Assembly (NCBI GenBank): GCA_000708835.1
Contig: DF237765.1
Coordinates: 1-32,100, forward strand
DNA length: 32,100 nucleotides
Origin: Klebsormidium nitens
Taxonomy: Eukaryota > Plantae > Klebsormidiophyceae
Direction of reading: 5' to 3'
Shown here: one piece after another, positions 396 through 32,100 of the stretch
How positions within the stretch are numbered: position 1 is the stretch's first letter
How the letters are laid out: each line of letters begins with the position of its first letter
Program-made: the position numbers and the translations under genes
Notes under the pieces: generated by a model
Seen by the model: the letters and a program-made list of their open reading frames with translations, nothing else
Database searches by the model: none
Told to the model about the DNA's origin: nothing

Positions 396-1068
396 TAGCC
401 TTGGGGTGACAATGTACTCTCCAAGTAACATCAGTGGTGGCCAGACTGGAAGGTGTGATAGTGCCGGTAGTAGCAAGCAAGTCCAGCTGAAGCAAGCCTC
501 TTTCGACCAGATCGCTTCAGGTGAAGTGAGGGTGGACTATCACAGCTGTTTGGAGCGCGTTGCAGTGAAATGCCTGACCTGCTTGCAACAGCTGTGGGTC
601 AAGGTGGACGGCTGTTTGCGGCACACATCTCGTAAAAACCAGGAGCGCAGAGGAGTTTGCAAGGGCTACTTGGTCAGCTCGCAAGTGCCAAAGGGCAAGC
701 AGACAAAACAGGTGGTCTGCCTTAGCTGCATAGATAGGCTGCTCGGCAGTACTGCCGAGAGCGCGGACGGGCGATCCATCCTGTTGAATAGGAGGCAGGA
801 TGGTGGCGAGGATGCAGCGATCCTCCAGCGGCGTGGAGAGGACGCATTCTGGACCCAGACCCTCGAGCTGACAGATAAGCTGGTTGCTTTCCTCGTACAA
901 CGTGATGAGAGCACGGCCGTCGGCAGAAAGCGGCGGCTCAGCGCAGCGGAGCAGGTCGTTAACAAAGGGGCGGCAAAGGGGATGCGCCCGAGAGAGGGCA
1001 GAGTGCCAGGATGCCAGGGAGTTACCGCGGGAGCCTCCGTGAGTGCCTCGGTGCTTTTATTTTCTTGA
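355..1068 (+). CDS. Cys-rich ORF (237 aa), possibly a 5' exon or accessory ORF of the KDZ element
   Basis: Open for 237 codons, with CLTC..W..C..H..C..CLSC spacing, on the same strand as and directly upstream of the KDZ gene. No family recognised and no splice link established. Confidence 0.3.
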   Translation: MTVLGGMRGPQDGDSLGVTMYSPSNISGGQTGRCDSAGSSKQVQLKQASFDQIASGEVRVDYHSCLERVAVKCLTCLQQLWVKVDGCLRHTSRKNQERRGVCKGYLVSSQVPKGKQTKQVVCLSCIDRLLGSTAESADGRSILLNRRQDGGEDAAILQRRGEDAFWTQTLELTDKLVAFLVQRDESTAVGRKRRLSAAEQVVNKGAAKGMRPREGRVPGCQGVTAGASVSASVLLFS

Positions 1069-3135: not shown

Positions 3136-3356
3136 GTGAGCGCATCGTGCAGTACGGTCGTCTCAAGGCCGCAACTTGTTTGGGAGATTCGTAAATAGCA
3201 AGGGGGGCTGGGCTGCGGAACACATTGACAGATCTTTGTTCTTTGTGAAAGAAGGTGTTTCCAGAATTGCAAGTGGGTGCAATTGAAGTCCGATGTACAC
3301 GTATAATCTGGGCAAGTTTGGATTGCAACCGCTTCGGTGCGCACACGTACGCGTAG
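3136..3356 (+). other. Spliceosomal intron in the KDZ transposase gene
   Basis: AAG|GTGAGC ... CGTAG|GTG CTT CTG TGC GAC GGG. Removal gives the expected C..CGPHPKVLLCDG. Confidence 0.85.
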
Positions 3357-4891: not shown

Positions 4892-5044
4892 GTGAGCGGC
4901 TGCCTTCCTTTGCTTTTTGCAACGGGTGCATTGGCTCTTGAGTCGAATGTGTACATTCAAGCCTATGTGTGGCAAACGAACGCGCCATGTAAGTGCTAGC
5001 TCAATCTCGATTGAGTGCTGATGTACACATGTCTTGTTTTACAA
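4892..5044 (+). other. Spliceosomal intron in the KDZ gene with a mutated acceptor
   Basis: Donor AG|GTGAGC after VVD. Joining to 5045 gives VVDRFHYSK, but 5043-5044 read AA (TTTTACAA|ATTTCAC) where AG is expected. Confidence 0.65.
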
Positions 5045-5373
5045 ATTTCACTACTCGAAGGCGGGGGCCGAGGTGCATAAGTGTGGGCCCAGCAACTCCG
5101 TGGACTCCTACGACGCGCTACGCTCGGTCAACACAAGCGCGGTGGAATCGGTCAACAGCTTCCTGAAAGGCTTCCGATCGCTGGGGTGGTACAGTAGCCT
5201 GGAAAGCTTCATGGTTATCCTTCCGCTCCTTCTGGACGCGTACAATGCGAGATTAAAGCGCGTTGACGATGCCAAGCTTTGCGTTGCCATTGCAGCGGGG
5301 GCATGGACGGCTGCAATCACGAGGGCGTTGTTGCACGGCTAGTTGGGCGCGCCAAATAGCCTCGTTTGTCGGT

Positions 5374-5855: not shown

Positions 5856-8766
5856 TCAGTCATCACCCGCCGATTCCTCTTGCATTTCCTTCTCGGTCTT
5901 GAGACGGATTCCGAAAAAGCCTCCTCTCCTCCCGGATCCGTCTAGCATCCGGATCATCCTATTCTTTTTGCCATCTTGTGGCGTGCTCGTAAAGCCCTTA
6001 ATGTTCATCGCTCTCGCCAAGCTGTCCCCTGCTAAGCTCGTGTCGTGCCCACCCGCACACAGGAACTCGAAGAATCGGTCCACGAAGTCGACCTTCGTGA
6101 CGCTTAACGAGACGCCTGTCACGCACGATTCGTCGATGGAACATTGAAGCTTGTCGTTCTCCGCTGCATACTCCCGTGCCGCAGCACGGCATCCCTCCGG
6201 AATGGGAGAGAGAACCTTCGATTCCGGAGATTGCTCTTTCTTCGCATAGTACTTCATTGCGCCCTCCACGCAAAAGTCCAGTACATCCGCCGCTCCTTCG
6301 GCCGATTCAAAGTACGACTTGAGCGTCAGGTCCATTGGTTTGTGTCTCTTGTTGTTCCGATCCAGTTCGTCCGGTGACTTGAATATAAAATCGAACATGA
6401 GCAGCACGATCCTGCGGACCAACGCGGCATCATCGCTCGGGAAATGCGGCCTGAAATTCGTGAAGAGGCATAGCTTGTACCGAGGAATGTAAACCTGCGG
6501 TTTGCAGAAAAGCTCTCGCGCTTCGATAGGATTGCCAGAGGCCGCTTCTTTCAGAAACGATCCGTTCAGATGATCATCCTTCTCTGATTCGTCATTTGTA
6601 ACGAAGCGTTTCGACTTGATGCACATCAGATGGGACGAAGCTGCTGACGCGTTTGCCTTGAAAGTGGGCTTGATAAAGATCGCCTTGTTACCGGCCGTGC
6701 TGTAGCTTCCGAACGCCCGACGTATTGCAGTTGCGAGCACGCTCTTCCCGTTTGAACCCTCCCCGTTCATGATAATAATTAGCTCCTCGCTCGTCTCGCC
6801 AGTTAGGCAATATCCCAAAAATATCTGAAGCCAATCAATGTACTCCGGTGGGAGGACGTCCATCGAGAAAGTGCGGAAGCGGGCCGTTGAGCTCTTCGAA
6901 GCGCCCTTAATGTATGTGCAGGTAGTATTGTTGCATAGATCTTGCGGGTGATGCGGCGAGAGGTCGCCTGTTCGGAGGTCGATCACTCCGTTCGGAGCAT
7001 TGGCGACATGGTTGTCTTGATCGAATAGGTCCATTAGATCTTCGACGTAGAGCTCGTTGACAATGGCTGGCAAGCACTTTCGCACATCAGCAATGTCTTG
7101 CACGTTAATCTTGCCGAAGCTTGGTAAGCTCTGATCTCTTTGCTTGAGACATGCCTGTTCGGCGAGCTTGGTCAGTTCCGCTTGCTGTTTAGAGATGGTC
7201 CGAGTATTCTCCTCTGAGATTCCTTAAAGATCGGAGTGCTGCGAGCGCAGGTTTGCCAAGTACCTCTCCCTTTTTCCCTTGTACCATAGAAGGAGGCAGC
7301 CCATCTGAGAGGTGAAGGCGCTTTCGACCAGATTTGAGACGTCTTGCGCCCACGAAGCACCGTTCCACACGTAGAAGTACGATGTATCCTTCTTCTTCTC
7401 CGACTTGTCTTTCGTGGCGAGAATCCTCCCTTCGATCGCATAGATGTAGGCAAACAGTCGCCCCCAGATTGAAATATGCTTGAGGCGCGGCGTGCTCGGC
7501 CACGATCTTGAGGAGGAGCTGTTGCACCTCTTCGTTCCCTCGAGTGTATTGCGTGATGGCTTGCATATCGTCGAAGTGGTGGACCGGCTGCGTGGTCGCG
7601 TCTTGCAGCGCAGCTTTCAGGCTTAGCACACCGAGCTTCTTCGGAGGTCTATGGGAGCAATCCTGGCCATGGCAGCGATAGTACACGTTGCGCCCGCGCT
7701 TCAGCAGATTAAAGTTATTGCTCCCAGTGTGACGATGCCCGAGGTAGCACGTCCTCGGCCCTCTCGTCCTGTAGCAGAAGTACGTTCCGTATAGGCCATG
7801 CGGCAACGTGCTCGCGTACGTGTTCGAAGAATCACCGGCCTTTTTTCTCAGCATGTTGGAGAGCTCGGTCCTCAGGAGGGTCGTGTCGTTCGACGGTCTG
7901 TTAAAAGCTGATGGTTGGTCATCATTGCGGTTAGTTGGATCCACCTGATTAGCCAAAGCGCATACTGCCGGGATCTCGGGGCTACCCACTGATTGGATCT
8001 CACTGGTGGAGCCGCTATCACCGCCATTATTAACCAATGTGCATAACCATCTGGGCATTTCGGAGCAAGTTTCATAGCTTGGTGGACCGTTTAGCCACTC
8101 GTAGCTTAGAAGCTTCCCCTGACCGTCCCTGTAGCATGCCGGGTCAGCATATACGCAACCTCCAACGGAGCGACCATCAATACCATACGGGAGGTCGCCG
8201 CCCGATTTCAAGCCTGCAAAGTTCGACTTGCGAATGAGGCCGGGACTGTTGCTTTTAAAGTACAGGTGAAATCCATTTGACCCGGTCTTTGCCCTCAGTG
8301 TCGACGGTTCACCATGAGTGGCAACCAAGCGGTTCCAAAGCTCCGTCCCTGGAAGCTTCTTTTTGGTGCTTGAATTGTCGACATCTATAACCATCAGAGC
8401 GCTTGGGCCCGTAAGAATAGCAAGCCCGTTTGCATCCGGCACCTCTAAGAGGGCAGTGGCAATGGACTTTTGCCAAGAGTCTCGGTCCTTGATGTGCCCC
8501 CACCTGCTGGGAAAGACGGCGTCCTTCTTCCCCTTACCCTCATTACCCATCGAATCCCAAAACATGCGCACTGGAATAGCATATAGACCCTTGTCTGCGA
8601 GGTTCATGATTGCCTCCTTGATGTTCGGCGGCCCTGGGGCCTTGATCGGGTTGGGGGTCGAGGCCCTAGGACCGACGACATTGGATGCGTGCTCAAAGCC
8701 TGATGCAGCCATTCTTTCTACACTCATCACAAGGAAAAAATCGAACCGTTCTGAACGCGGCCACAT
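5856..8766 (-). pseudogene. Rep A: bifunctional primase-polymerase (Prim-Pol) + UL52/PrimPol-type Zn finger + D5_N + SF3 (D5/P4-alpha-like) helicase + C-terminal winged helix; intronless, 1 frameshift + 1 stop
   Basis: Prim-Pol motifs LMVIDVD, KTGSNGFHLYF and GIDGRSVGG. ZnF CYLGHRHTGSNNF..YYRCHGQDC. D5_N YFYVWNGASW and NAPNGVIDLRTG. Walker A GEGSNGKS, Walker B FVTNDE, motif C CLFTN, Arg finger VRRI. There is one extra base in the C5 run at 7461-7465 and an in-frame TAA at 7224-7226. The start (ATG at 8766 or a later ATG) is uncertain. Confidence 0.9.
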
Positions 8767-8790
8767 TTTATGCTGCGGTCGAATATCCCG

Positions 8791-10016: not shown

Positions 10017-11037
10017 TTAAGCACCAGAGAAATTTATCTTTTCGCCATTTGGCAGGTAATGCTTTTCGTAAGTGGTCATCTGGATCGAAGACGAATGCAG
10101 CATTTTTTTTGCCAGCTCGTCCCTCTCGGCAATGCTGGGTGCATCTTTGAATGTATTTGAAATACATATTTTCCGTAAAAGGCAAGATCCGACGTTCGCG
10201 TCCGGAAAGATCTTAGAGCAAAACTTTGTCAGGTAGTTTCGAGACATTGGCGCATCAGGAGAGCGCATTCTGCTGAGGAGATAAGCCCTTGGAAACACCT
10301 CCAGACTTTCCGAAATGACATTGTTGGTACGAGTTGGCAGATCGATGGTTTTTTCGCCGTAGGTTTTTACCGTCTTGTAGTCTTTTAGCACGATTTGGAA
10401 GCGGCCTTTCTCGTATTCGAAAAGGTAATTACCAGTTCCGGCCATCAAGGCTTTTGCAGCAGAGTCGTCGTAGCAAACAATTGGCAGCTCGCTGTAGTCA
10501 TTTCTCACAGCTGGTGAATAGGTATAGAGACACAACACCAAGTGCCGGATTAGGGTAACCTTGTCTAGAACGGTCAATTGTTCTGCATGGCTTTTTAGGT
10601 AGAATGTAACGGTTCACTCGTCGTTGCAGCTCCACCCGCCTTTCGTTGATCTGTTCAAGCGATCTCCAGTTCTTATATTCCGATTCCGAGAGAACTTGCG
10701 GCGGAGGTCTGGCATTTTCCATCACTTCGCGAACCGATTGGTACCGTTTAAAGTAAGTTTGGTAGAGTTCAGTGTTTTGGTCGGATTTCAACTCCTTTTT
10801 GACAATGACGAGAATGGGGGTTATGCATGTTGCCTGCATGCTCGGCTTTTCCTCATATGTGTTTGCCAAATAGCCGATTATCCGGTTTGTATCCTTGAGC
10901 CACTCGAAACTCGACATATCAGCATCTTGACCGTTCAGTCCTTTGTACAGACGTGCAATATGACTGCAGTATTGGTTAACGGTCACCGGTTTCCGGGTGC
11001 CATCGTCAAAGACTTTCTGAAGAAGGTCTTGCGTCAT
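10017..11037 (-). CDS. Tyrosine recombinase resembling the OLV11-like family of virophages/Polinton-like viruses; one +1 frameshift near 10587
   Basis: LCLYTYSPAVRNDY (catalytic R), DYKTVKTYG (K), LLRKICIS (R), MLHSSSIQMTTYEK (H and Y). The N-terminal domain carries the ..NWRSLEQI motif. Removing one base at ~10587 fuses ORFs 10498-11037 and 10017-10577 (..KP-AEQLTVLDK..), ~340 aa. Confidence 0.85.
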
Positions 11038-11319
11038 TGGCGTGGTTACAGTGCGTGTCTCAGCCTGAGGCCCCCACTACATTGTCCGGCCGGTTGTCAA
11101 AAAGCGCACTACGATTTGCCCGGGGCCCGCAAGATACGGGGCTGTTCATCCAGCGGGGCCACGTCAAATGTACGGAATTGAACTGGCCAATGAAACAGGG
11201 GTGGTACATATACCACGTGGGTTGGTATAGGACCGCCGGTCCCGTCAGGCTGTGAGTGCCCGGTCACTAATTCAGCGTAACATCGCCTGCAGACACAGCC
11301 AATTCAGCTGCCCGGTGAC

Positions 11320-11477
11320 NNNNNNNNNNNNNNNNNNNNNNNNNNNNNNNNNNNNNNNNNNNNNNNNNNNNNNNNNNNNNNNNNNNNNNNNNNNNNNNNN
11401 NNNNNNNNNNNNNNNNNNNNNNNNNNNNNNNNNNNNNNNNNNNNNNNNNNNNNNNNNNNNNNNNNNNNNNNNNNNNN
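11320..11477. other. Assembly gap (N run)
   Basis: 158 Ns upstream of the recombinase. Confidence 0.95.
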
Positions 11478-12142
11478 GTCTATGCTATATTGAGTAGGCT
11501 GTAAATAATGCCCGGTACGGCCCGCGCGGTAGCCTTCGGCTAGTACCGCCAGCTAGGATAAACCTGCCGACGGTGAATTCTTGTAAACCTTGAATTTTCC
11601 GAGTACACTCGACGGAGAAAGTACTGCCGCAGTGTACAAGTGCAATTCTGACAGACTTGGACTCGGTCCCTATACGTGGCACTCATCGGACGGTGCCAGC
11701 CCCAGCCAGCGGAAAGTTCGGGACCCCGAAATGTACCTAGTTAAAGTGCGCTTTTTGACAACGGGATGGTCAATGTAGTGCCCTGCATACTTGCTTTATC
11801 TAGGTTATGTAGATAAAAATTATGACCAGCAGACGCGTCTTTCTTTTGTGGATAAGTGATTATAGGCGTTTGTATTTTTTGCAAAAGCTTTATCGTGTAA
11901 AAGCTGTTGTAAATTATTTGACAAAAGAGGGGTTCCGGAGGGCCTTTTCAAAGGGACTTTTGTTACAAAAGTGATTATGAGCCAGATAACGTGAATATGG
12001 TTGTACATTTTTCATATATTGAGCACTCTGACGCCATTCATTTTTCTAGAAGGGGCAACGCTCCGTTATTTGTTGCTGATGCCGACCTCTTTGCCGGGTT
12101 CGCAAGCAGTTCGAGGTCAGGTACTTCGGTGTCCTCATTTTT

Positions 12143-12687: not shown

Positions 12688-13806
12688 CTACTTGTCAAGC
12701 GAGGTGTGGCACCTTCGAAAGGCCTTCGACAATCGGAACCTTCTCTCGAGTTTAACTTCAACCCAAGCCTTCCTTGCTGCATCGAGCAACTCCTTCGAAC
12801 GCTCCATCTGTTCCTCAAACTCAGCGAGTCTCTGTAGGTACACCGTATAATCTGTGACGAGTGCAGCCTCCACGTTCAGCCAAGCCTTCCAAAGCACCCC
12901 CCCTGCTTTCTGAGCGATGAGTCCGGGCTTGAAACGTTGCTCATTCAAAGGCGCAAACAACTCGGTAGCGTAGAGAGCCTGGATCGCTCTGTGAGACCGT
13001 TCCACTTCTCCCTTCTCAATGCCACGTAGCTTGTGGCTGTAGTGCCGTTGAAAGTCCTCTAGATGGTTCGCGCTTCTTCCCTGGTAACATGCAAAATGAG
13101 CACTTGTCAGTGAAATGTACACAGTTATTGCAGCTTCGGATTATGAATAATGACATATGTACACTCAAAGCATCACAATGATCAAAGATGTACACCTTTT
13201 AAGTAGATTGCTTGATTGTTAGGGCTTGACGAAGGATCCAGCTCATCTCACCTCGACCTTGTCTGGATGAAACTTGAGGGACCAAGACGAGTGACTCAGT
13301 TGGATCTCCCCCGAGCCGAACCTCGACTTCACCTCGTTGGGGGTGAATTGAGCGTCCGCTAGAAGCCACGAGATCGGAGGCGGCGTGTACCTCGGTGCTT
13401 CGGGCTCGGGGGGTTCTGGCACGGCAGTCAAGGCAAGAGCGCGGTACTTCGCGATATGGGGAGCGCGAAATATAGCCCGCTCTCTTCTCAAACTCGTCCT
13501 GTACTTCGCGACCGACGCTTGATTGCTTTGCTGCTTCATGCGCCTGGCGGCATCCGGGCTGAGACCTCGCAATCTAGAGACGGGGCGCTCGCTGGGCAAC
13601 TTCGCTGACTCGCAACCGGTCCTTGCAGGGTGGACCTCGAGAGCTTGCTTTGATGCAAAGTCCTTATTGCATGCATCTTCAGATTGTAATGAATGATGCT
13701 CCAGACAAACATAGCGGCCATCCCGCCTTTCCCAATGTTGTACGGCCGCTTCGGGTTCGGTTGGCGGCACAGGGCTTGGAGCATCGATGGGGTCTGCCAT
13801 CGCCAT
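12688..13806 (-). CDS. Two-exon gene: C2H2-like Zn finger + J-domain-like HPD motif + coiled coil
   Basis: Exon 13806-13252 has YVC..CNKDFASKQALEVH and EIQLSHSSWSLKFHPDKVE. Intron 13251-13081 has a GAG|GTGAGA donor, a CTGAC branch point and a TACCAG acceptor. Exon 13080-12688 continues in phase 0 (GRSANHLEDFQRHY..). Confidence 0.65.
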
Positions 13807-13989: not shown

Positions 13990-14350
13990 CATGGTCGCCT
14001 ACACCGTGTCGAAGGCGATGGGTCGGGGTCTGTCCAAGCTGTCCAAGCTTTACGTGCATGAAGTATTTCCATTGTTCGACTTGATGACGACACCAGTCCA
14101 TCAGTCCGTTGTAATTGCTAATGTGGACTCGAGCAGCGGCCTGTTCGGGTTGTCCAAGCTCTGGCGCGAAGTTGTCTGTCATTCCGTTTGCTGACGGCAT
14201 CAATCTGTTGTAACTGACAGCGTCCACTTGGGCAGGGCTGTCCAGGCTGTCCAAGCTTTTGCGCACAATCCGGGAGATGGCCTCGGCATGTGTCCAGGTG
14301 TCCAAGCGTTCTACGGAACTTATTGTGGCCGCGAAATGCTGACGTCACCA
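13990..14350 (-). repeat. TGTCCA/TGACGTCA module array 3' of Rep B (inverted relative to the 22.2-23.0 kb array)
   Basis: Paired (C/G)TGTCCAAG motifs at ~14030, 14150, 14240 and 14295, and GCTGACGTCA at ~14338. Exact reverse-complement matches: 14175-14195 with 22322-22342 (21 nt) and 14094-14117 with 22410-22433 (24 nt). Confidence 0.85.
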
Positions 14351-14680
14351 TAACTAGAAGTTGCAGACTTTAGTGCCGTTGAGCTTAGACATTTCATACG
14401 CTAGATAAGCCACCATTCAACTGTGACGAATGCAGACCTTGATTTTTAGCACGAATGTTTAATAACAGTGATGTTTCTCACAGACGATGTTATATCCAGC
14501 ACCAAGCTTTTCGAAAACACGAACGACCACTGAATCGATGAAGTTGAATGTACACGAACCTACTTCAATAAATACACAATCTAAAATACAATATTAGTGA
14601 GCGCGCCAGCCTGCATGGACAGTCATTCTGAGTCACTACCATGCCTATTGTACAATGGGAGCCTCGAACCCCTATGATAA

Positions 14681-17600
14681 TTAGAATTCATAATTGCACT
14701 TGATTCCTGGATAGTAATACTGCCACGGCGAGTCGTTATTCCTAAGCCTCTTGAATCTCTTCCGTTCCATTCTTCTTTTCAGCTGCTCTTTGGAGACGGC
14801 CTCGGAGGAAAAGCTATTGTAAAGCCCAACAAAATCATTCTCCAAAGTCGAGTGCCCTTCCCCGAACTCGCAGTGCTGGTCGAGAAATAGCTGCAGCTTG
14901 TCCATCTCGCTCAGGTACTCACGTGTCGCGTTCCGCACTGCCTCAGGAGGAAAACCGAGCCCGTTTGCGCTAGCATACCACTCGACGGAGCCGCGGGCTA
15001 TCCACGAAAGGACCTGCCGAAGCGACTCCTCCTCCTTCATGCGATCCTTCAACCCGTCGTCTCGGAGGCGGTGGGTGGCGTTGGTGGGATCGAACTTGTC
15101 CGCGCCCACATAGCTGTTAGGAAACGGCATTACTCGCAAACGGCGTATGACGTTGTCCTGGACTGCGGACGCAGAGATGGTGGGGGGGTAATTCGTCTGA
15201 ACGAAGGGCGTGTGGGTGATGTTGAACTGTACGTTGCGCCCATGGAGAGGGCGCGCCTTCGTCTCGCCCCCTCCGGTCATTCCAAGGACAAGCCCAAGAT
15301 CGACCTGCTCGCCTTCGGCCGTCTCGTCGGTGATGGCGAGCCGCACGCCCATCAGCTCGTAGATGTAGTCCGTAGGCGCGTTCTTGGAGGCGACTCTCTG
15401 GCAGGGAGCCGTGACGACCGCGTCCTTAGACATGAGGCCGTAATAGTCTCCGGTTGCAGCCTGCAGCGTCTCCTTCAGGACCCCTTTCCCGTTTCCTGCA
15501 AAACGACGGAGAAACGAGCTCAACTCAAGATAACAAAGATGATTCAGCAAGCATTCACGCCTTCAGGCACACGGAAGAAAGCTGGTCGGATCGCTGGTCG
15601 TGGTATAATGAGATGCATAATCTGTTGATTTAGAGATCTATCAATGTTTAAGGCCGTCCATCCGCATAGAGCTCCAAACTGGTATATGGGCTCTTTTGGC
15701 AAACGCGATGTGGCCAAGAAGTCGCACAGAACGCTGAGAAGCGAAAAACCGTTGGACGACTAGCTACGAGCGGCCAGGCCTGATGCTACTTGACATCCAA
15801 AAAGCACATCACACACTTTCTGGACGACAAGAATGGAAACAAAACCGAGGCCTGGCTTGAACTCAGCAGCAATCTCCTTCCAAGACTAAGCCCGACAATC
15901 TAGAGACCTTACCTCCCGCTCCGAGCAAGAGCACAAAAATCTCCTCCTGGGTACGGCCGTTCAGGGCCAGCCAAACAGCTTCCGCATGTAGTCCACCAGC
16001 TCGGAGTCGTGGTTGAAGATGTCGCCCAGAAAAGCATCCATGAGAGGGCTTGGGTAGTCGATCCCCTGCAAAGACAGGTTCTTGGTGTTACGGACGGATA
16101 TACAGGCTCCTTGCCTTTTTGCCTCAAAAGCAATGGAGCAGATCGTAGATGCACGTCCTCAGAGTTAAATGTCAGCAAGATTGTAAAGAGCCAAAATCAC
16201 AACGGAAGAAGAATCCAGCGGCAAAGGATGCACGCCAACGCCTTGCTCGTGTCTTTCACAGGCAGCCAAAAGTGCGCGCTTTCACGAGACCGTAAGAGAA
16301 CGAGAAGGTCGTTCAGGGGCTCCCAGCAATCAATAGCGTGCTAGCCAACGAAGTCCTTTTGGAAGCAGCATGGGGTGCTTACCTTGAAGTCCGTCTCCGT
16401 GATCTTGGAGCACATGTATTGGGGCCTGTGCGCATCCAGCTCGCCCGTCCTGAGAAGGAGCACGCCGTTCTTGACGTTCAGGATATCCGGGTTTGCGTCC
16501 AGCTGCTGGGCGAGGTCGTCAGCGGACAACTCCCCCTTAATGAGCTCAAGCGTACTGGACATCTCACGGGTGTTGTTGTAGGTGCGCAGGTGCTTAAGCT
16601 GCAGGAATAGCTCCTCCTTCTTCTCCTCGTCAGTGGTCGCCTTAATCTTTGCGCTCCACTCGTCCCTCACTCGCGCGTACACGATCCTGAGCTGATTGAT
16701 GAGGACGTGCTTCACCAGGAAATCGCTCTCATTTGACACGAAGCGCCGCCCCTCCCAATGCCACCAGCGTTTCCCATCGAACCACAGCCTGCAGAAGGGC
16801 AAGTAGGACGAGTTAACCGAGGCTGGCGAGCACAATTCGGCGTGAGCTCTTGAGAAGCGCGTCCAGAGCTCTGAATGCATCAAGCAATTCTGGTCTACCA
16901 ATCCCCTTCAACTTCCATAGAAAGCCTGCTTAACCTGCACTTATAACCGCACCAAGGAGTCCAGAATAAAGTTCAAAAAAAACTCTCAAGAGATTGAAGC
17001 ACGATGATGACGTCAGCAATATCAGGCCGACGAAATCTTACACCAAACCTTGGACACTTGGACGGACTGCCAAGCCAAGCCCAGTCCGTTGTCCAAATGT
17101 CCAAGCTTCTGCCAAAAGATTCGAGCAAAAATCTGAGCGTGACGTCAACAATATCAGGCCGACGAAATCTTACACCAAACCTTGGACACTTGGACGGACT
17201 GCCAAGCCAAGCCGAGTCCGTTGTCCAAATGTCCAAGCTTCTGCCAAAAGATTCGAGCAAAAGACTGAGGATGACGTCAGCAATATTAGGGGAAATCTTA
17301 CACTAACCCTTGGACACTTGGACAGACTGCCAAGCACCTGAGACCTTCTCAATTGCAGCAAACCTCTTAAAAACAAAAATGGCTCAAAATCACCTTTTCG
17401 CTGTACAAGCGTTGGTAAGAATGATCTAGATGACGGGCGCTCCTACAAAAGCGTTTTATTGCATGTGCCAGACGAAGTTTGCCCACCTGCCACAACTCGT
17501 GTACATGGCAGCAGCAATCTTGCTGCCGCCGACGTCCCCCTCAAATGCCCAGTAGTCCACGAAGTCCTTGTGGAGGGCGTCGATCGCGCTGGCGTCATCA

Positions 17601-20600
17601 GCACGGAAGGCACGAATCTCGCCACCAATCATGGCCTCTGAGCGCGTGAGCTCTCCGATCTTTCGCAAGGGGCGGACCCCCTCGCACTCCGAGCTGTTGC
17701 AGCAATACAGCAGGGCCCTGCCGCGTACCAGCACGCTGAAGTTGTTGGAGCCGTCGTGGTGATTGCCGTTGGGGCAGCGTCGGGGCCCGTCCACCCGAAA
17801 GACGTACATCGGGCCGTTGACGCCCGTCTTGAGGCGATCGAAGCGAGAGGCGGTGTCGCCAGTATCCGCCACGCAGGCCTTGACGCGCTTCAGGATCGCT
17901 GCTGGGGGAGGCTGCTGAGGGTCTTCGACCGGACGAGGGGGTCCGAAAGCTGCGGTCTGGGCCTCGCTACAGAATATAAAAGAGTAAAGCATCACAACGC
18001 TGAAGGAAAGAAAGCAAACATGTCGATGTTCTCACATCATAGATGGAAACTGGGACAGATGAGTCAGGCTACTCCGGGCCCGGCTGTCCACCCACTGATC
18101 GACATATAAAACTACNNNNNNNNNNNNNNNNNNNNNNNNNNNNNNNNNNNNNNNNNNNNNNNNNNNNNNNNNNNNNNNNNNNNNNNNNNNNNNNNNNNNN
18201 NNNNNNNNNNNNNNNNNNNNNNNNNNNNNNNNNNNNNNNNNNNNNNNNNNNNNNNNNNNNNNNNNNNNNNNNNNGACAAGAAATGCCTTTGCTCTAGAGC
18301 TTGGACAACTTGGACAACTCGGAGAGGCCCCGACCCGATCGACGCGATCAACTACAGTGGCTTTTGGCGTCAGCATTTGCGACAAGAATAACTTTGTTCT
18401 AGAGCTCGGACAGCTCGGACAGACCCTGCTCGGACTTCCAGGGGACCGAATCTGAGGATCAAGGACTTGAGAACGTACCCGCCGCGGCGGCCCCCGCCAC
18501 CGTCCTCGCTTGGTGCTTCGTCGCTCTCGTTGTCTGGGGGGGCCCTGAGATTGGAGCGGTCCGGCAGGATCTCTTGGTCCCACTCGTAGCACCGGCACGT
18601 GCCGTCGAGCCCCACGTAGCTGCTGGGAGCGGTGTACAGCATTCCGCCACGCCCGCGCACGTCGATGCCCACCGGTTCGCCCTTGTACCGGATCCGTTTT
18701 CTATTTGCGCAGTTGCGCAGGCCGGCCTCTGCGGACTGCGACAGGGAGAAGAGGACGTGCATGCCCCCGTTGCCGGTGGTCAGGCGGGGCGTGTCCTCCA
18801 GAAAGAGCCCGTGCTCTTCGAGCATACGTTCGACCGCTTGGAAGCCCCCGTCCTTCACGTCGACGTCGACCGCTAGGATGTCGGACGCCTCCGTGACGAT
18901 GGCGATGGTGTTGCGGGACTCTTGGAGGCAGTTCCCGAGGTTGGCCTCGTTCCAGGGCTTGCGGGAGGGCCAGCGACCTGGCACCTTTCGGACTTCACCG
19001 TTCGGAAAGCGTTTCTCCTGGAGATCGTGGGTGAGGGTCACGACGCCGAGCTCGTGGAAGTGATGGGCGGCAGCCAGGATGGGGTCCGGGCTTGGTCCCT
19101 GCAGAAAGAAGAAAGCAATCTCAGATTGATTGCAGATTGATCTACATAATACTCCGAGCGCGATCCGTTCACAGACGCTTGACAATCCGAGTGCCTACAC
19201 TTTCGGACTATGCCCCGCAGCAAATCAGCATGACGTCAACAAGAACGTAGCCCATTTGGTAAAGCCTGGACGCCTGGACAGCCCATCACTTGCCAGACCA
19301 TGAATCGAAATCGGCACTGTCCAAGTTATTCCGAGCTCCACAAACAAACAGCTAAGAGCTTGTGGGATGACGTCAGCAAGACAGCGCCGCGAATACTTTG
19401 GCAAAAAACTTGGACACGTGGACAAACGCACAAAGCCAAAACTTCCACTAAAAGCAAGCCCATCAGGGGCGAACGGCGACAACTCGGGCTGTCCAAGGTG
19501 TCCAAGCTCTAGAGCAAAGTATGTCCGGTTTCAGCTTGCTGACGTCATCAAGTCCTTGCAGCTGCACTCGAGCAGAGTGTGTCCGAAGGGTCCAAGCTGT
19601 TCCACCTTTATTTATGTTCTTTCAGGGCTGGAGTGATGACCTCAGCAGACAAGCTTGAGAGACGGCTCTTCCAGGCGCCGGAATGATGACGTCAGCAAAA
19701 TTTAGCTGCATAAAACTTGCGCCAAACTTTGGACACTTGGACGGACCACCGAGCCCGGACCAGCAAGCCCAGACTGTCTTGAACCGACTTGCAAAAGGCG
19801 AGTTCTGTCAAGTTCGGCCGTGAGTCTTGAGATAGCCTGTACAATGACGTCAGCGGCTGATTCCGGCCAAGCCCGTTGCGTCATCAGCACCAGAGCGCAT
19901 TAAAGGATTACTTCCACGCCCACTTCGCGCACCTGGATTGGCGGCCAAGTGCAGAAGGGTGCTTCGAGCTCCAAATAATGAGATGAGTCAAACCCGAGCC
20001 TACCTGGCGGAAGGGCGTCGGCTCCTGCACCGCAGCGCGGGCGTTGGCGCGCGAAGGAAGTGCTGACGTGGCCGCAGACATGGAGGCATCTCGGACGGAT
20101 GGCCCGGCAGTAGCGGCCGTTGTCGCTGCGACGGGAGCCATCGGTTCGCCGTGCTGGGACACGGCCTGCACAATTTCCAAGTCGATCACATGAGAATAGA
20201 GAAGCCGAAATCAATCATCTCACCCGAGTTAACCGCACAAGAAAAGCAAATAAGACCACAACCGGGCAAGCTCCGATCAGATGTTAGGAAAGGAGACACG
20301 CCGAAGCTGATCGCGCGCGCATCAGCTTTACGAATTCGTGTACATCGTCAAACAATGTCGTGAATGCTTGGGAATGTACACGAAGGGAGGGCAAATATGA
20401 TCGACTGTACACTTTCATACGAATTGCTCAGGCCTCAACTCCGACAAGAATTTGATGCAACTTCCGAAAGACAGTCGACCATGGAAAGTGGGCACACCTG
20501 GCGCGCAAGAGACTCCCTGCGCTCCTGCCCCGAACGAGGGTCGATGCGGCAGATGCTGAAGTACTGGCGCAGCTCCTCGGATTCGCGCTCGTCGTCCCAG

Positions 20601-23600
20601 TCCCAGAAAGGGTCGTCGTCATTACGAAGGTCCCCCCACTCGCTCGATGTAGCAGACTGCCCCCCTTCCTCGGAGCCCGACTCGTCAGCTTCCGCTTCCG
20701 CTTCCGACAAGATCACCCGGCGACGACGCCGCTGACGGGGCTGCGACTCTCCACTCTGCTCGCTCTCTACGCGCTTGACCCGCTTGCGTGGCCCCCCCAA
20801 CTGAACGCCCGACTCGGTCTTTGACGGCCAGAGCTCTGCGTCCATCGCAGCGTACTCGCAGAAGGGGGGGCGGCCCAGTGCTTGAGGAGACTCGTTTCTA
20901 AAGGCACGGTCCTGTGAGGTCTCCTCGTCAGAGGACTCTTCCTCCCGGTTGAATTCCACGTCCTCAATGTCCTCTCCCTGGGAGTCTGCCTCGATGCTCC
21001 GACCGCCACTCTCCTGATAGGAATAGAAAGAAACGTATTGATCAGATCGAGCAACGGCTCACGTTTAAAATGGTGACAAGTCTTGTCCTATGATCGACCG
21101 TACCTTCAGATCGAGGTTTGTAAGCCCTTCCTCGTGGTAATACAAACGGACCAAAAGCGCCCGACTGAGGACTCAGTGGAAGGTCGTAGGTACAAACAAC
21201 GACGATTCGTGGCTGAATTCTAACGTAGACTGGGGCCGTTGTTGAAAGCCCGTGGCCGAAAACGACATACACGAGCTATCATTACAGAAATTTCGCATAA
21301 GAGCCCCGTAAAATGCAAAACGCTGAAGATTGGCGGGACATCGGGCGCCCTGTGGATCCACAAATGCAAGGAAAAACGGGCTCAAGGCAGCCCTCTATCT
21401 GATGGTCCACGTCGGCATCGGATCATATGGAGCTGTCGCTTCAGCTGCCAACTCAGAACATTAAGAAAACCTCCAGCCCTTGCGATATCTGACTTGAGAC
21501 TTCCAGCCTCCGAAATTGGCATCATCACGATTCTTTCTAAGCCTGTTCACATGGGCGTCCAAGATGTCCAAGATGTCCAAGCTTTTGCTCAAACTTTTTC
21601 GAACATTGATTTCATGACGTCATCACTACTCTCAGACCTATGGCCTGACCTTCGGATGGATGCCCGAGAAGGTCCGAGCTCTAACCCGAAGTACCCTGCT
21701 CTGTGAACTGCATTTTCACATTGTCGAATCACCGAATGTTGTGAACAGCACCATAAGAGATGCAAGAAAGCGCTCACCTCCATCCTCGCGTCCTCCACAT
21801 CCCAATCTCCTCTGCTCTCCACAGGCGTCGGGCGCGACTGCGACAAAGGCGGGAACGAGGCTGAGGCTGAATCACCCCGTCTGATGACGGCCCCGGGTTG
21901 CTCTCAACGCAACCAATCATCAAGAGGGTTGCTGCACGGATTGGAAAGACGACGATTAGGGCGCACTGCAATGCTCGATTCCCTCAGTGGACCCGGAACA
22001 GTAAGATCAAGCTGGACAAAGGGCTTCATTGTAGGGCGGAAAAACATCAGGCACTGCTCAGAGACGTGCCACGACTGACTTCCTAGGGCTTTCAGCGCCT
22101 CACCCAGCAGTGCATGGCTCATGGGCTTCCTGGAGGGCGGCGCCACCTTGAAGTTGGCCTCATCCCAAACTGCAGAAGCAAAAAGTGGCGCATTCAGCTG
22201 AAAGCTGCAAGACATTGCTGACGTCAGCAAATCGAGGACGGAAATACTTTGCGCAAAAGCTAGGACAGCTCGGACTGGCCCTGCCCAAGTCGACGCTGAC
22301 ACTTACAAAGAGATTGATGATGTCAGCAAACGGAATGACAGAGAACTTTTGCGCCAGAGCATGGACAGCTCGGACAGCTCGGACGGGCCCTGCTCGAGTC
22401 TGGCACTGCCAATTACAACGGACTGATGGACTGCTGACGTCAGCAAGCTGGACGAAGAGAATTTCGCCAGAGCTTGGACAATCTGGACAACACGGACAGC
22501 CCCTGGTCGACGCTGCGGATTGATGACGTCAGCAAACGGGTGACAAAAGAAACTTTGCGCCAGAACTTGGACAGCTCGGACACCTGCTGAAGCCCATGCT
22601 GTCAGCTTTAAGAGATTGATGATGTCAGCAATCGAAGGACGGAACTACTTTGCACCGGAGCTTGGACAGCTCGGACAGACCGTGACCCAATCGACACGAT
22701 CAACTACAGTGGCCTGATGACGTCAGCAAATCGGAGGGCGGAAATACTTTGCGCAAGAGCTTGGACAGCTTGGACACACCCTGACCCATCGATGCAATGA
22801 ACTACAAGGTCGTGATGACGACATCAAGTCGAAGGACGGAAATCCTTACGCCAGAGCTTGGACAGTTCGGACAACTCCGACAGGCCCTGCCTAAGCCTTA
22901 TGCTGTCAGTTACAAGGCTGATGATGTCAGCAATTCATGGACGAAAAAACCTTGCGCCACAGCTTGGACAGTTCGGACAGACCCTGACCCAATTCGAGCT
23001 TCAACTGCTGGTAAGAAACGACAGTACCATCGATTATGGTGAACGGGCTCACTCACCTGGCAGGCGGCAAGAGGATTTTGCTGGTTCCGCAGACGAGCTG
23101 GCCTTGTCCATCTTCCGCAGCTCCTCTTCGAGTCTCACCACCTCCGCTTTCAAACGGCGCTGCAATCGGTCCTGTACCCAGACTGCAAAAGGCAGGCGCA
23201 CTGATATGAGCTCCTGTGTGCTGACAAGCGGGCGTAGAAACCTTGACTGGTCAGTCGGGCCCAGCTGCATATGAATTCCTGCGCGCTTCATGCCGCTAGC
23301 AGAGGCCTCCCAAATCTCTCACCTGCACGGTCTTTGTCGATGCAGAAGCAGCCGTTGAAAGCGGAGTGCGCGCTGCAGAGGTATCTCGTTTCCCCCCCCT
23401 CCTTGCTTCCACGAAGCCCAAACTCCGCGGTGGCGCCGCATCGGTGGCAATGGAGACTGTGCGGATCTGGGAAGGATGTGGAGAAATTCAAGTTTCAGGT
23501 GCGAAGCTTGTGCAGTCTGAAAGCGCTGAAGCATTGCAAGCTGGGCTTGACCAGTCTGTCCAAGTGTCCAAGGTCTGCGGTAAGATTTTGAGGGCATCAA

Positions 23601-23893
23601 TCTGCTGACGTCATCCTACAGGCTTCCACATGATTGTTTGGCAAAAGCTGAGACAGGCAACTGGTGGGCACATAATGCTCTTGCTATATCGACAGCCCCG
23701 GATCCTATTCCCTCTATCAGTGAATCACAACGGAGAGTGTCCAAAGAAGTGTCCAAGGAGCGCGAGGTTTGCCCTTGGAACCCACTTCAAGTTCTTTATC
23801 CAACTCAGACTTGGGAGCAGCAACGTCGATTGCGCTTCAAAGAACGACAGACTGAAACTAGACACATAGCGAGCACTCACCTGCGCTATGCAT
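14681..23893 (-). CDS. Rep B: 12-exon gene, small Zn/coiled-coil leader - 2A-like peptide - acidic linker - Prim-Pol - UL52-type ZnF - D5_N - SF3 helicase (~1218 aa; two 1-nt deletions)
   Basis: Exons: 23893-23881, 23466-23323, 23182-23057, 22169-22104, 21931-21778, 21013-20498, 20165-20004, 19098-18479, 17966-17487, 16788-16383, 16065-15913, 15495-14681. All junctions are GT..AG. Phases match once 1 nt is restored at the C4 run 21875-21878 and at ~15970. Motifs: ILAVDVD, TTGNGGMHVLF, GIDVRGRGG; CPNGNHHDGSNNF..LYCCNSSEC; LNVKNGVLLLRTG; Walker A GAG|GNGKG, LAITDE, FVQTN, IRRL. Exons 8-12 are well supported by homology. Exons 1-7 rest on splice signals and phase only. Confidence 0.8.
17008..17340 (+). 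repeat. 132-bp tandem repeat x ~2.5 in Rep B intron 9
   Basis: TGACGTCA at 17008, 17140 and 17272 (period 132). Each full unit contains the dyad TTGGACACTTGGACGGACTG..AGTCCGTTGTCCAAATGTCCAAG. Confidence 0.95.
18116..18274. other. Assembly gap (N run) inside Rep B intron 8
   Basis: 159 Ns adjacent to TGGACA repeats (18298-18422). Confidence 0.95.
19231..19860. repeat. TGACGTCA/TGGACA modules in Rep B intron 7, including a 180-bp dyad 19368-19547
   Basis: TGACGTCAGCAAG (19368-19380) pairs with CTTGCTGACGTCA (19535-19547), enclosing TTGGACACGTGGACA and TGTCCAAGGTGTCCAAG. Further modules at ~19231, ~19687 and ~19846. Confidence 0.85.
21888..21931 (-). other. 2A/StopGo-like peptide TLLMIGCVESNPG|P
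   Basis: Codons ACC CTC TTG ATG ATT GGT TGC GTT GAG AGC AAC CCG GGG CCG directly after a CAG acceptor. Matches (D/G)(V/I)ExNPGP except for C at the D position. Confidence 0.65.
22219..22990 (+). repeat. Degenerate ~100-bp tandem array x8 in Rep B intron 3
   Basis: Units begin TGA(C/T)GTCAGCAA at ~22219, 22319, 22435, 22525, 22619, 22718, 22818 (degenerate) and 22921. Each is followed by TTTGCGCCAGAGCTTGGACAGCTCGGACA-like cores and related variable linkers. Confidence 0.9.
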
Positions 23894-25570
23894 GTTGATC
23901 GCTAAGCGTGCGCTGGGGCCAGACCCATCTCCAGAAAGGAATTGTTCAGCGCCTGCTGCGTGGATTGCGGCGCACTGCTTGTGAGGATCTTGACTCGTTG
24001 AAGTGCAGGATGAGCCACCCAGTGCTAATGTACACCGCGCCTGCAAGAATAAGCATGCACTAAGTCCAGAAGAAGATGTAACCTCTGATTGGCACTGATT
24101 ATGCTGGCATCACATGGTGCCAGGAATGCGATGCCTGCTCGAAACCATCTGCTTGACTTTGTGATGGGAGCTGACAGGGCCTCCGAAGCTGGATACTTAA
24201 CATGCCTCATGATGGTCTTTGTCTCAGAATCGCTGAGACCGGAAATTAATTGAATCCTTTGGATTGATCCTACCTGCTGCAACCTGACACCGCAATGGCT
24301 CTCAAAGCACACATACCACAACCGCTGAGGCACAGCCGCTTCTTCAGTTGCCAGCAATCAACACTTGAGGGACACCACAAATACAAGTCTATAAAGATGT
24401 TTTGTAGACGTAAAACCCCGGCAGCTTCAATAGCCACCGTTGCAGCTCAAAAGGTACCTCGTCAATGATGATTCATTCAGCAACAAGATTCAGCTTGAAA
24501 AAGGAATAGATGCAGATAGGTGCTCACCACAGAAAGTTGCGCTCCCTTGCCTCCAGCTCCCCGAATATCTGCTCAAGCCTGAGGTTCTGCAGATCGGTGT
24601 ATTCCCCCCTTGTGACTGCTGGAAAGAGCCCTCTGGAGCACCTTATATATGGTGCACCGCCGGAAGCCGCCGACAGTTGCCATCCCCTGCCAGCCAGCCT
24701 GGCAGATCTTTCTAAGCAAGCTGAGTCAGAAGATGCTCTGCTGACTCGGAAGATGGACAGCTGGCAGGGCTGCAAATAAGTGCCAGAGCCCGCCATTGCG
24801 TGCCGCAATGCGCCAATATGCCAGCAGGCTGCATAGGTGACAGCTTGCAGATTGCATGCAGAAGACAACCTGGCAATCCCCATTACTGAGGTACACTGCG
24901 AGAGAAGAGCCAAAACAGAAGAGTTGTCGTTGAGACACGCGCTACAGAAGAAACCTACAACCTGCTTCATGGCAGCCATTGCCGAGGAGTCTCGGAAGAA
25001 GCCAACCCCTGCAGTGGCTGGGCCTGGGCCTAGCTAGGTCACGGCTCTTGTTGCCCAGTCTCGTATGTCCTACGGTATATAGAAGGTTACGGGCCCCGAG
25101 GGAGCGTTCAGGGCCCCTATAGAGTGCCGCAGAGTCTAAGGATCGCCCGGGATAGGGTGAGTCCAAGCTCGAACAGCTTGCACCTTAGGGAGAATTTTGA
25201 GACCTGCCGTTTGTATGCAATGGGAGAATCGAGGCGTTTTTGCCCCTATGCTCTCTGTCCATGCGGTTGGCTGACAATTCTAAACAGAATCGGTCTTTGT
25301 AAACAGAAATCGGGTCTTCGGTTACCGATTCTCATTCAACACTTCACGTCCCATGCAACGCCTTCGTCGACTCTCATGAAAGGGGGTGGTCGGGAGCATA
25401 ACCCGGTCAGTTTTAAGCAGCCTTTGAACCCGCGGGCCGGTGTGGTTCCAAGGGGAAACCCCGTACCGAGGGGGCTGCCCACCTTCCTCCCTGCGGGGAA
25501 AGGATGGGGGGAAACAAGTTTTTGCCCCTACGTCACTGCTCGGTTGGAGCAAAATCGCCTGGCGCGGTGG

Positions 25571-26287
25571 GTATGTATTTCCTAATCTAACGAGGAGCCA
25601 AAAACTTTGTATACTCGAACTTCGCACTTTCCTCTTTATTTTTTGTAAGAGGAAACCCATTTGCGTTTGTAGTACAACTTTTCTGCATGAGAGAAGGCGG
25701 ATTAGCAATTACATTAATACCTTAAATGATTGCAATTGTGTATGTACGTATTTCCTATTCTGAGGACGAGCCAAAAACTTTGTATATTGAAACTTTGCAC
25801 TTTCCTCTCCTTTTTTTGTAAGAGGAAACCAATCTGCGTTTGTAGTACGACTTTGCCGAGAGAAGGCAGATTAGCAAAAACATACATACCTTATAAGCTT
25901 AGGGACTCGAGGCATGGGCCAACCTACCTAAGATAGTATAATTGACTGCAAGGACTTATGTATGTATGTATTTCATAATCTGAGATCGAAAGGTTTTGTG
26001 TACTAGAACTGTTCACTTTCCTAACTTTATTGTGAGGAGGAAAACCAGTTTACGTTTTAAGTACGACATTTTGGAGCAAGGAGAGAATAGCAAATACAAA
26101 CATATTGGTAAGGATATTATAATTGATAGAGGAGAGTAATGTATGTACGTATTTCCTGTTTTGCATGGAATCCAGAAAGTCTATATTGCAAGACTTTTCA
26201 ATTTCTACTTCTGTTTTTGTACAAGGAAAGAAGGATCGCGTTTGTAGTACGACCTTTCCGAGCCGGGCCAAATTAGAGAATACATAC
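25571..26287 (+). repeat. AT-rich ~170-190-bp repeat units x4 with inverted ends (GTATGTATTT..AATACATAC)
   Basis: Units start at ~25571, 25740, 25957 and 26141. Shared AAAACTTTGTATAC, TTTCCTC..TTTTTTGTAAGAGGAAA hairpin and GCGTTTGTAGTAC. Confidence 0.9.
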
Positions 26288-26578
26288 CACTGAAGTGGCT
26301 GCAATCTACTCAAAAGCAGTCTATCGCCAACATACTGACAACGCGGCATACGTGCGATGATGCACCATCACGAACGTCTGATCAGCTACAATCTTTAAAC
26401 GACAAGGGTGTTGTTGGCAATTGGCCACCAATATGACGATTCAAACTTACTTTGCTGCCGCCCCTTGAACATTGTCAAAACCGTTCAGCGTGCCCTTAAA
26501 GGGCGGCATGTTATACGAGTTCGCGCGTCAGCTCTGAAAAGGCTAGGTAGTTCGCTGCTATTCCGATTTGCTTTCGTG

Positions 26579-30262: not shown

Positions 30263-30793
30263 AGTGGCTGTTCTCGTTTTGTTGGTAGAGCAGACTGCCC
30301 CGACTCCACGGCACCTCTGCAGAGGGAGCCAGCGCTGTCCCTGCGCACCATCCAGCCGCCCTGAAAGTACTCCTTTATGTCTCCCACTATCTAACCCTTA
30401 ACCCTCGCGACGTTGAATGGCGATCAGGACCAAGTGGCCAAGCTTGCAATGGACAGGAGCCAGGCGGTCAGCTGGATGGCTATGGTCAGTCTTGTATGTT
30501 CCCGGCCTGTGCCAATTGGTTCAGGCCCCGGGCTCTTCGTTCCTTCCCCCGGGAGCGCTGGGTAGGGCCGCTGCAGCCTGGCTCGCGACCGGACAGTACA
30601 GACCGGGCCGGGGCAGCCCGGCCGGGCAAGAAAGTCCTGGGTCCTGGATATTGTACAGTAGGTCCCAACATACTGCCCAAATAGCTTGAGAGCGTCGAGA
30701 TCGATGCGCTCGAACTTTCGCAAGGTTCCGCAGCCGGCTGACGGACCCTCGATATAAAAGTTCATCGCGTCAATATCCTGAACTTAGAGACTA

Positions 30794-31189
30794 CAGCAGT
30801 TTCGGAGCAAGCTGCCCGGTTGCGATCGATAGATAGGGTCTATTTAGTCTAAATTTAGGCTAAACTTAGTCAAAGTTTACTTACGTGGCATGACTTCGTG
30901 ACGTCTGCACAGTAAAGCTGAAGTTGCGGCACGGTGAACACTTTTTGGTTAGGGTTTTTAGTTTGGTTGCTCAGGGTCTGCCAATCTTAGGGCACATTGC
31001 TGTTAGGGCACACTAGAGTTACACGGTACATATGCCCGGTGATTGGACGATGTGCATTTAAGAACTTAGAATTTGACGTGGAGGAAACTTTAATGACGTC
31101 AAAAGGATAGCCTAAACTTTGACTAGATTTAGTGTCTAAATAGACCCTATCTATCGGTCGCAACCGGGCAGCTTGCTCCGAAAATGCTG
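30794..31189. mobile_element. MITE (396 bp), 54-bp TIRs, TA target-site duplication, Tc1/mariner-like signature
   Basis: Left TIR CAGCAGTTTCGGAGCAAGCTGCCCGGTTGCGATCGATAGATAGGGTCTATTTAG matches the right end reverse complement with 2 mismatches. TA at 30792-30793 and 31190-31191. No ORF. An approximate empty site exists at ~189-212. Confidence 0.85.
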
Positions 31190-31191
31190 TA

Positions 31192-31371
31192 GCAACCGGG
31201 CAGAAGGAGAAGGCTCGGAGTAAGGGGTCGGCCGATAGACTTAGAGGCTTGAGATCGAGCCGAAAGGCAGTTCCAAGGGGCCCGGGAAACTCGGACCGAG
31301 GAGGAGGGTGGAGCTACCGGGGACAGCGAGGTGTCGGTGACTTAGAGGAATGCGCTGCCTCAGGATAGTGA
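31192..31371 (+). repeat. Dispersed repeat, copy 2 (homologous to 201-395)
   Basis: See copy 1. It is interrupted on the left by the MITE and ends just before the AT-rich units on the right. Confidence 0.9.
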
Positions 31372-31394: not shown

Positions 31395-31757
31395 CAAGGA
31401 CTTATGTATGTATGTATTTCGTAATTTGAGATCGATCCAAAAACTTTATATACTAAAGTTTTGCACTTTCCTCTTACTTTTTTGTACGAGGAAAATGCAT
31501 TTGCGTTCGTAGCACGGCTTTTTGGAGAGAAGGCAGACTAGCAAATACATACATACCTAAATGATTGGAGTTAGGTATGTATGTATTTCATAACTTGAGG
31601 ACGAGCCAAAAACCTTGTATACTAAACTTTTGCATTTTCCTCTTACTTTTTTGTAAGAGGAAAATGCATTTGCGTTTGTAGTACGACTTTTCTGAGAGAA
31701 GGCAAATTAGAAAATACATACATACATTATAAGCTTAGGGACTTGAGGCATGGGCCA
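31395..31757 (+). repeat. Two more AT-rich ~170-bp units plus a shared 30-bp tail (direct copy of the 25571-25921 type)
   Basis: Units start at ~31403 and 31575. Tail TATAAGCTTAGGGACT(C/T)GAGGCATGGGCCA at 25892-25921 and 31728-31757. Leader GCAAGGACTTATGTATGTATGTATTTC occurs at both loci. Confidence 0.9.
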
Positions 31758-31873
31758 CCCTTTCACCCTTTACCGCCCTCAGTCTGGCACTGCCCGGCTA
31801 TGGGAAAGGCCCTAACACCAGGCACTCGAGGCCTTTTCGACCGCGGTCGGTCTATCTGCAACCCCTCCGGTCC

Positions 31874-32002
31874 GGGGGGGCTGACGTGGTGGCCTCTGAG
31901 TGGCCCAATTTTAATGCCGAACTTCAAATGGCTTGCTGCAGCAAGGCAAATGAAGTTCGGCATTAAAATTGGGCCACTCACAGGGCGCCATGTCAGCCCC
32001 CC
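31874..32002. repeat. ~130-bp near-perfect palindrome
   Basis: Arms 31874-31926 and 31951-32002 include an exact TGAGTGGCCCAATTTTAATGCCGAACTTCA dyad. The centre CTTGCTGCAGCAAG is itself a perfect palindrome. Confidence 0.95.
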
Positions 32003-32100
32003 TCGGCGGTCCGGCCAGACCGGGGAATTTTAGGGTTTGGTGGCGTCGGTCTGGCCCCATGGAACATACTCGAACCGCCGGGCAGTGTCCAGGTGTCCGA

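Follow-up and report, generated by a model that had tools for sequence, protein, structure and literature searches.

The Rep B gene of Klebsormidium nitens carries a recurrent two-part DNA module, which is a real feature of the gene: a TG(A/C)TGACGTCA(G/T)CA box is joined, at a largely fixed distance and in either orientation, to a CTTGGACA direct pair. The window analysed is a whole 32,100-base scaffold with three N gaps, and within it 23 full and two half modules form seven clusters, located in introns 1, 3, 5, 7, 8 and 9 of Rep B and in its 3′ flank (Table 1). Our tentative reading, to which we give a little short of even weight, is that the module may be an hr-like bipartite enhancer or origin, in which a bZIP-type box is paired with a box for an element protein, carried by a low-copy family of multi-gene mobile elements.

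Anchoring on near-matches to TGACGTCA yielded 22 of the full modules and one more was added by eye. A strict composite pattern matched the window 13 times, compared to 0.00 times in 100 shuffles. A scan with a profile of the 23 full modules returned 25 matches of ≥25 bits, all between 14014 and 23619, its own training copies being matched by construction. At the same threshold there were no modules in exons and none in the 22 kb outside positions 14000–23900, including the KDZ-like and intron-rich Crinkler-like regions, and the profile scan also left introns 2, 4, 6, 10 and 11 of Rep B empty. The modules are arranged as singles, converging dyads and arrays, the last of these only in the flank and in introns 3 and 9. 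Intron 9 contains two TGACGTCA palindromes that each belong to two oppositely pointing modules. These results bear out most of a preliminary description of this DNA, which had reported a two-part module in the same six introns and the 3′ flank, with tandem arrays, dyads and the intron 9 tandem, and had seen none in exons or in the KDZ or Crinkler-like genes. Its intron numbering also fits the 12-exon model of the gene. Three points described below are absent from it: the frameshifts of Rep B, the standard host bZIP/TGA site in the first box, and the place of the gene in a multi-gene element.

Table 1. Positions of the genes, modules and related sequences discussed in the text.
Feature	Position	Strand	Remarks
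Rep A, second Prim-Pol/D5 gene	5856..8790	−	Intronless, frameshifted; no modules
Conserved zinc-finger/basic neighbour gene	12688..13806	−	Two exons; encodes a C2H2-like finger, a long basic helix (N-x7-R) and an HPDK motif
3′ flank cluster, between Rep B and zinc-finger/basic gene	14014..14355	−	Three full modules, one half module
Rep B gene	14681..23893	−	12 exons, 11 introns; frameshifts in exons 5 and 11 versus paralogues
Intron 9 cluster (intron 17486-16789)	17003..17337	Both	132-bp tandem x2.5; five full modules (three +, two −)
Intron 8 cluster (intron 18478-17967)	18282..18432	+	One full module; one half module, cut by an N gap
Intron 7 cluster (intron 20003-19099)	19224..19764	Both	Four full modules (three +, one −); includes converging dyad 19368-19547
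Intron 5 module (intron 21777-21014)	21552..21630	−	One full module, with three GGAC copies
Intron 3 array (intron 23056-22170)	22210..22999	+	Eight full modules, about 95-117 bp apart
Intron 1 module (intron 23880-23467)	23541..23619	−	One full module
Lone GGACA pair, intron 1	23738..23758	−	12-bp period; no box at canonical distance, no profile match
GGACA pair at scaffold end	32087..32099	−	8 kb upstream of Rep B; possibly a module cut by the window end

Conservation is concentrated in the two boxes. Among 21 non-redundant copies (the intron 9 copies 17140+ and 17279− are recent duplicates and were excluded from these statistics), mean pairwise identity is 82% for the first box, TG(A/C)TGACGTCA(G/T)CAA, and 89% for the first CTTGGACA of the second box, compared to 32% in the left spacer, 51% in the right spacer and 27% and 34% in the flanks. 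The TGACGTCA core is exact in 14 of these copies and carries one mismatch in the remainder. Twelve copies have a GGAC period of 9 and eight have a period of 8; in one there is none. Mean identity among module copies is 56% between sites and 64% within them. The spacing of the boxes is tighter than the 25–35 nt noted before: counted from the start of the box to the first NGGAC, it comes to 43 or 44 nt in 18 of the 23 modules. The centres of the two boxes are 42–43 bp apart, or approximately four helical turns, which puts them on the same face of the helix. Conservation limited to boxes at a fixed spacing would be the mark of selected protein-binding sites, as opposed to a repeat that decays evenly. 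Of the 21 copies, 17 retain the core CpG, and CG methylation is described as marking gene bodies and transposons in K. nitens (PMC5890265), but CpG retention is a modest argument here because intron CpG in Rep B is only mildly depleted (o/e 0.55–1.19). The occurrence of modules in both orientations points to a signal at the level of DNA and not of splicing; a splicing signal was dropped on this ground and on the distances to splice sites, which range from 49 to 777 nt.

Rep B encodes, in order, an N-terminal Cys/His finger-like exon, a 2A-like motif, an acidic region, Prim-Pol, D5_N, an SF3 helicase and a Pox_D5-like winged helix. Prim-Pol and D5_N are Pfam matches and the P4-family primase C-terminal region (TIGR01613) scores above its curated cut-off. 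The last 93 residues resemble Pox_D5 winged-helix clusters (0.96, language-model features only), while the AlphaFold model of Rep B (pLDDT 32) is too low in confidence for use on the winged helix. The helicase exon is a 100% match to KFL_008160040 of K. nitens, and the database protein P0001 supports the gene model. Among the matches listed, introns 6–11 are skipped exactly at their GT-AG ends in RNA-like contigs. These come from three runs of three studies, presumed to be RNA, which show exact GT-AG joints that the DNA run X1 lacks; bins over modules without RNA-contig cover were left out as evidence, and summed contig depth was not taken for copy number. The frameshifts in exons 5 and 11 are real breaks, since DNA contigs spanning both exons, and for exon 11 an RNA-like contig as well, match the window with no gaps. 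Judging from the RNA-like contigs of all three studies, transcription and splicing of the broken copy continue.

The zinc-finger/basic gene downstream of Rep B adjoins Rep B-type genes on four scaffolds, and on this basis we consider Rep B to be part of a multi-gene mobile element family. Nine copies of the neighbour gene are named in K. nitens: four adjoin a Rep B-type gene by gene number, one more lies on the same scaffold as one, and the other four have no Rep on the same scaffold among the matches listed. On another scaffold, the annotation of P0027 fuses a zinc-finger exon to a Prim-Pol that is 37% identical to Rep A of the window, so that Rep B, the finger gene and Rep A follow one another there as they do here. 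The neighbour gene family is small, with 16 representatives at E ≤1e-10 among 1.8 billion. Its long basic segment is predicted to be helical and carries the N-x7-R/K signature, with N in 15 of 15 members followed by R in 13, K in one and M in one, and so resembles a bZIP basic region. The alignment of the neighbour proteins contains no heptad leucines of a leucine zipper, a profile search with 12 members returned nothing from the bZIP families at E ≤5, and the structural model (pLDDT 62, pTM 0.24) gave no fold match, bZIP or other. In the Atlas the protein falls only in unnamed clusters, at scores under 0.9. With zipper, profile and fold support absent, it is a candidate binder only. Pfam found no capsid or packaging ATPase among 28 ORF pieces of the window, although Pfam may miss these and the element may exceed the scaffold or enter its three N gaps.

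If the module is a bipartite enhancer or origin, the TGACGTCA palindrome would be occupied by a bZIP-type dimer, most probably of a TGA/CREB-like protein of the host, while a second protein, most likely the winged helix of Rep itself, would bind the CTTGGACA direct pair about four turns away. The bZIP-type factor would help to load Rep, thereby boosting expression of the element genes and marking start sites for the primase-helicase. Within a long coding region, only introns could house such sites at no cost, and the module copies would increase in number by duplicating locally and by exchange from cluster to cluster. Because the Rep of this copy is broken, any activity here would be provided in trans by paralogues.

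Several known systems offer parallels. Plant parasites use as-1/ocs-type TGA sites. The first box of the module contains the palindrome TGACGTCA, given as the representative TGA motif (PMC9360754), but the module couples a single palindrome to an unrelated direct repeat, whereas in as-1 two TGACG motifs stand in tandem in a promoter. In baculovirus hrs, short units that carry CRE-type motifs for host bZIP proteins are repeated in several dispersed clusters, and hrs are described as both enhancers and origins (PMC13513840). They differ in that they belong to a viral genome and consist of AT-rich units of ~70 bp, built on a 30-bp imperfect palindrome whose core is an EcoRI site; the second site of the module is a direct pair with a period of 8–9 bp, in DNA of about 50% GC, within spliceosomal introns of an algal nuclear element. 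Phage P4 alpha likewise combines a primase, an SF3 helicase and a C-terminal winged helix, which is reported to bind origin repeats (PMC4234260); there too, short direct repeats in both orientations lie near the gene. Its primase is of the Toprim type, unlike the Prim-Pol of Rep B, and compared to a P4-type iteron origin the pairs found here are coupled to a bZIP-type box, lack an AT-rich core and number about 25 sites spread over introns. As we read it, the module resembles hrs and iteron banks in the way it would work, and it is a member of neither family.

The domain order of Rep B is the same as that of the pRN1 ORF904 and BIP-1-type Prim-Pol-SF3-wHTH replicons. For these, a stem-loop of about 100 nt located downstream has been proposed as the origin, ORF904 being described as needing the stem-loop and not iterons (PMC4234260), and their genes are prokaryotic and intronless. 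[quoted passage not shown] In contrast, Rep B has 11 introns and no viral-contig relative, and no gene for a capsid or packaging ATPase was seen beside it in the window.

Several observations count against the enhancer/origin reading. An AT-rich unwinding stretch beside the repeats is a feature of iteron origins, and none was found between the three converging GGACA pairs, where the DNA is 36–45% AT. The nearest counterpart in architecture, pRN1 ORF904, relies on a stem-loop and not on iterons. The intronless Rep A gene has no module. Of the seven longest introns of Rep B, six are those that hold modules, and by length alone all six clusters would be intronic with P = 0.048.

A purely transcriptional role is the alternative that we take most seriously, although we regard it as somewhat unlikely. 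The module would then bind a host bZIP and a TGTC-binding factor, or else the zinc-finger/basic protein of the neighbour, and would keep the element genes expressed with no origin role and no binding of Rep. This would suit the lack of an AT-rich unwinding stretch, the continued transcription and splicing of a broken Rep B, and the position of the 3′ cluster, which lies in a single orientation about 210–540 bp upstream of the ATG of the neighbour gene (13806). bZIP sites have also been named as coupling elements of TGTC-type auxin elements. Against it, twenty copies inside a replicase gene are more than one promoter would need, and the converging pairs look like initiator sites. We know of no plant factor with a CTTGGACA direct pair of 8–9 bp.

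A more specific form of the enhancer/origin reading is unlikely as a whole. Klebsormidium would harbour undescribed, capsid-less, self-replicating nuclear elements with an intron-rich gene for a phage-type primase-helicase, and the introns would serve as a bank of bipartite origins at which a bZIP-type factor, borrowed from the host or supplied as the basic-helix protein of the element, loads the winged helix of Rep at a distance of four turns. Were the module an origin or enhancer, it would place the cis-sites of a eukaryotic element with a phage-type primase-helicase in its own introns and make that element dependent on the spliceosome. It would also single out one sequence as the candidate target of a eukaryotic D5-type winged helix, and would make a small replicon available for testing in a model streptophyte alga. 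A transcriptional role alone would still mean that a mobile element builds enhancer arrays inside introns. We found no description of the module or of the element family (Rep B, the zinc-finger/basic gene and a second Rep) in open-access titles and abstract openings, although the repeat libraries of the genome paper may bear on novelty. Giant-virus endogenisation in Klebsormidium has been mentioned, with no word found there on the Rep B element (PMC11244446).

We searched for further copies in DNA run X1, which comprises 108,136 contigs and 103 million letters and may be the assembly's own source. At 80% likeness, intron 3 matched 17 of the 108,136 contigs, including its own locus and its own diverged 3′ flank, leaving 15 further contigs; loose ends of others carry further modules in arrays. 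The Rep B family has at least 14 named K. nitens proteins, in addition to K. subtile transcripts. Contigs and paralogues are thus similar in number, in keeping with a module bound to the element. Independently of these counts, the gene model of paralogue P0012 continues past the donor site of exon 8. The peptide at its end could be encoded by a full, reverse-strand module with the canonical spacing, in which case the TGA of the module box provides the stop codon. From this one back-translated peptide, we infer that P0012 has a module in intron 8 at the same position as here; in a test for this type of intron-8 read-through, one of 30 proteins passed, as did one of 150 shuffles. Together with the two boxes and the Pox_D5-like end of Rep B, the 17 contigs and P0012 lend support, as far as sequence goes, to the earlier suggestion that the modules are origins or binding sites connected with the Rep family.

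At 80% likeness the module looks low-copy, but the test is weak because module copies here average only 56–64% identity, so that diverged ones are missed. The abundant satellite or MITE that had been named as the case against a Rep-linked module was not seen at this likeness, with the same weakness. We consider it distinctly unlikely that the module is an old host-wide repeat or regulatory module, dispersed in long introns and present in the Rep B family only incidentally. Such a repeat would have most of its diverged copies missed at 80% likeness, would sit as these modules do in the longest introns, and might account for the GGACA pair 8 kb upstream, at the scaffold end. On the other hand, the remaining 22 kb, which include the intron-rich Crinkler-like gene, hold no match of ≥25 bits; the X1 mapping caught the gene's own diverged 3′ flank and yet only 15 further contigs; and the module of P0012 would lie in the same intron. 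Outside Klebsormidium, a pattern scan of viral contigs gave no module matches, and protein-seeded locus searches found no relatives in viral contigs or prokaryote genomes. Nine single matches in a metagenome scan were judged to be chance (no second module, no Rep homology, ≤14 bits), as was one single match in a scan of prokaryote genomes. An Rfam search gave no match.

The preliminary description had also proposed non-autonomous mini-replicons that Rep B amplifies and that home to its own gene; such mini-replicons, or MITE-like passengers, would insert into its introns. The occurrence of singles, dyads and arrays in different introns would be compatible with this, as would the subtype shared by modules of the 3′ flank and intron 3 (up to 77% identity) and the ability of dyads to fold into long hairpins, for which there was no shuffle control. 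We nevertheless hold it to be very unlikely: there are no conserved termini (flanks 27–34%), none of eight clusters has a target-site duplication above the control, and conservation is limited to the boxes where a passenger would be conserved as a whole unit. MITEs were rejected for the lack of conserved termini or terminal inverted repeats (flanks 27% and 34%) and of target-site duplications (0/8 clusters), of which old ones may have decayed.

Least credible is the idea that the modules are arm-type or subterminal binding sites for an element recombinase or a flanking transposase, despite a KDZ-like gene (Pfam E 0.02) on the scaffold and an ORF (10017-11076) that resembles a tyrosine recombinase in its putative catalytic residues: Pfam and other database searches gave no recombinase match for this ORF, there are no modules near either gene, and those found lie inside the Rep gene and not at any recognisable end. 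Two further candidates were dropped. A satellite or minisatellite would form head-to-tail arrays with even conservation, whereas the modules include singles and dyads, point in both orientations and are conserved in their boxes, and the A/B-box consensus of a SINE is, by eye, a poor fit.

Incomplete or isolated pieces of the module were also seen. The pair at 23738-23758 in intron 1 had been listed before as a module, but it consists of a GGACA pair only, with the box missing at the canonical distance. Intron 7 additionally holds weak remnants and a lone TGACGTCA at 19845.

The database paralogue P0005 of Rep B shares 75–90% identity with the window in most of the N-terminal exons (exons 1–7 compared), versus only about 46–56% in the Prim-Pol/helicase region, and this unevenness suggests domain shuffling between copies of the mobile element. 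When contigs were aligned to the window, numerous loose ends were found at 23394–23468 among the RNA-like contigs (three runs guessed to be RNA), indicating that the Cys/His finger exon (exon 2) is common to several other transcribed loci. Contig joints at the position of intron 8 reveal one paralogue with 469 letters identical in DNA (run X1) and RNA-like contigs, such that this paralogue may either lack the intron or retain it.

Exon 5 encodes a 2A/StopGo-like motif that terminates in CVESNPGP, with C replacing the usual D. Sequence comparison shows a motif of this kind in P0005 and in a second paralogue, P0008. Rep B may be a polyprotein from which an N-terminal finger peptide is released.

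The near-perfect 128-bp palindrome lies about 85 bp away from the scaffold-end GGACA pair, and its arms carry TGACGTGG-like sites; it is a candidate for either a stem-loop origin or an end of the element. A frameshifted ORF pair resembles a tyrosine recombinase in its putative catalytic residues, and database searches found no support for this identity. The second repeat family flanks the Crinkler-like gene on both sides.

Positions and properties of the features in the window
Feature	Position	Strand	Details
KDZ-like transposase region	355–5342	+	weak Pfam match, E 0.02
Frameshifted ORF pair	10017–11076	-	recombinase-like
Inverted repeat	11075–11780		36-nt arms, 89%; around N gap
Intron-8 position	17933–18532		
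2A/StopGo-like motif	21880–21930	-	Rep B exon 5
Finger exon	23323–23466		Rep B exon 2
Second repeat family	25570–26290; 31398–31760		~169-bp units, internal inverted repeats
Inverted repeat	30791–31192		57-nt arms, 96%; 400 bp, MITE-like
Palindrome	31875–32002		64-nt arms, 89%; loop absent
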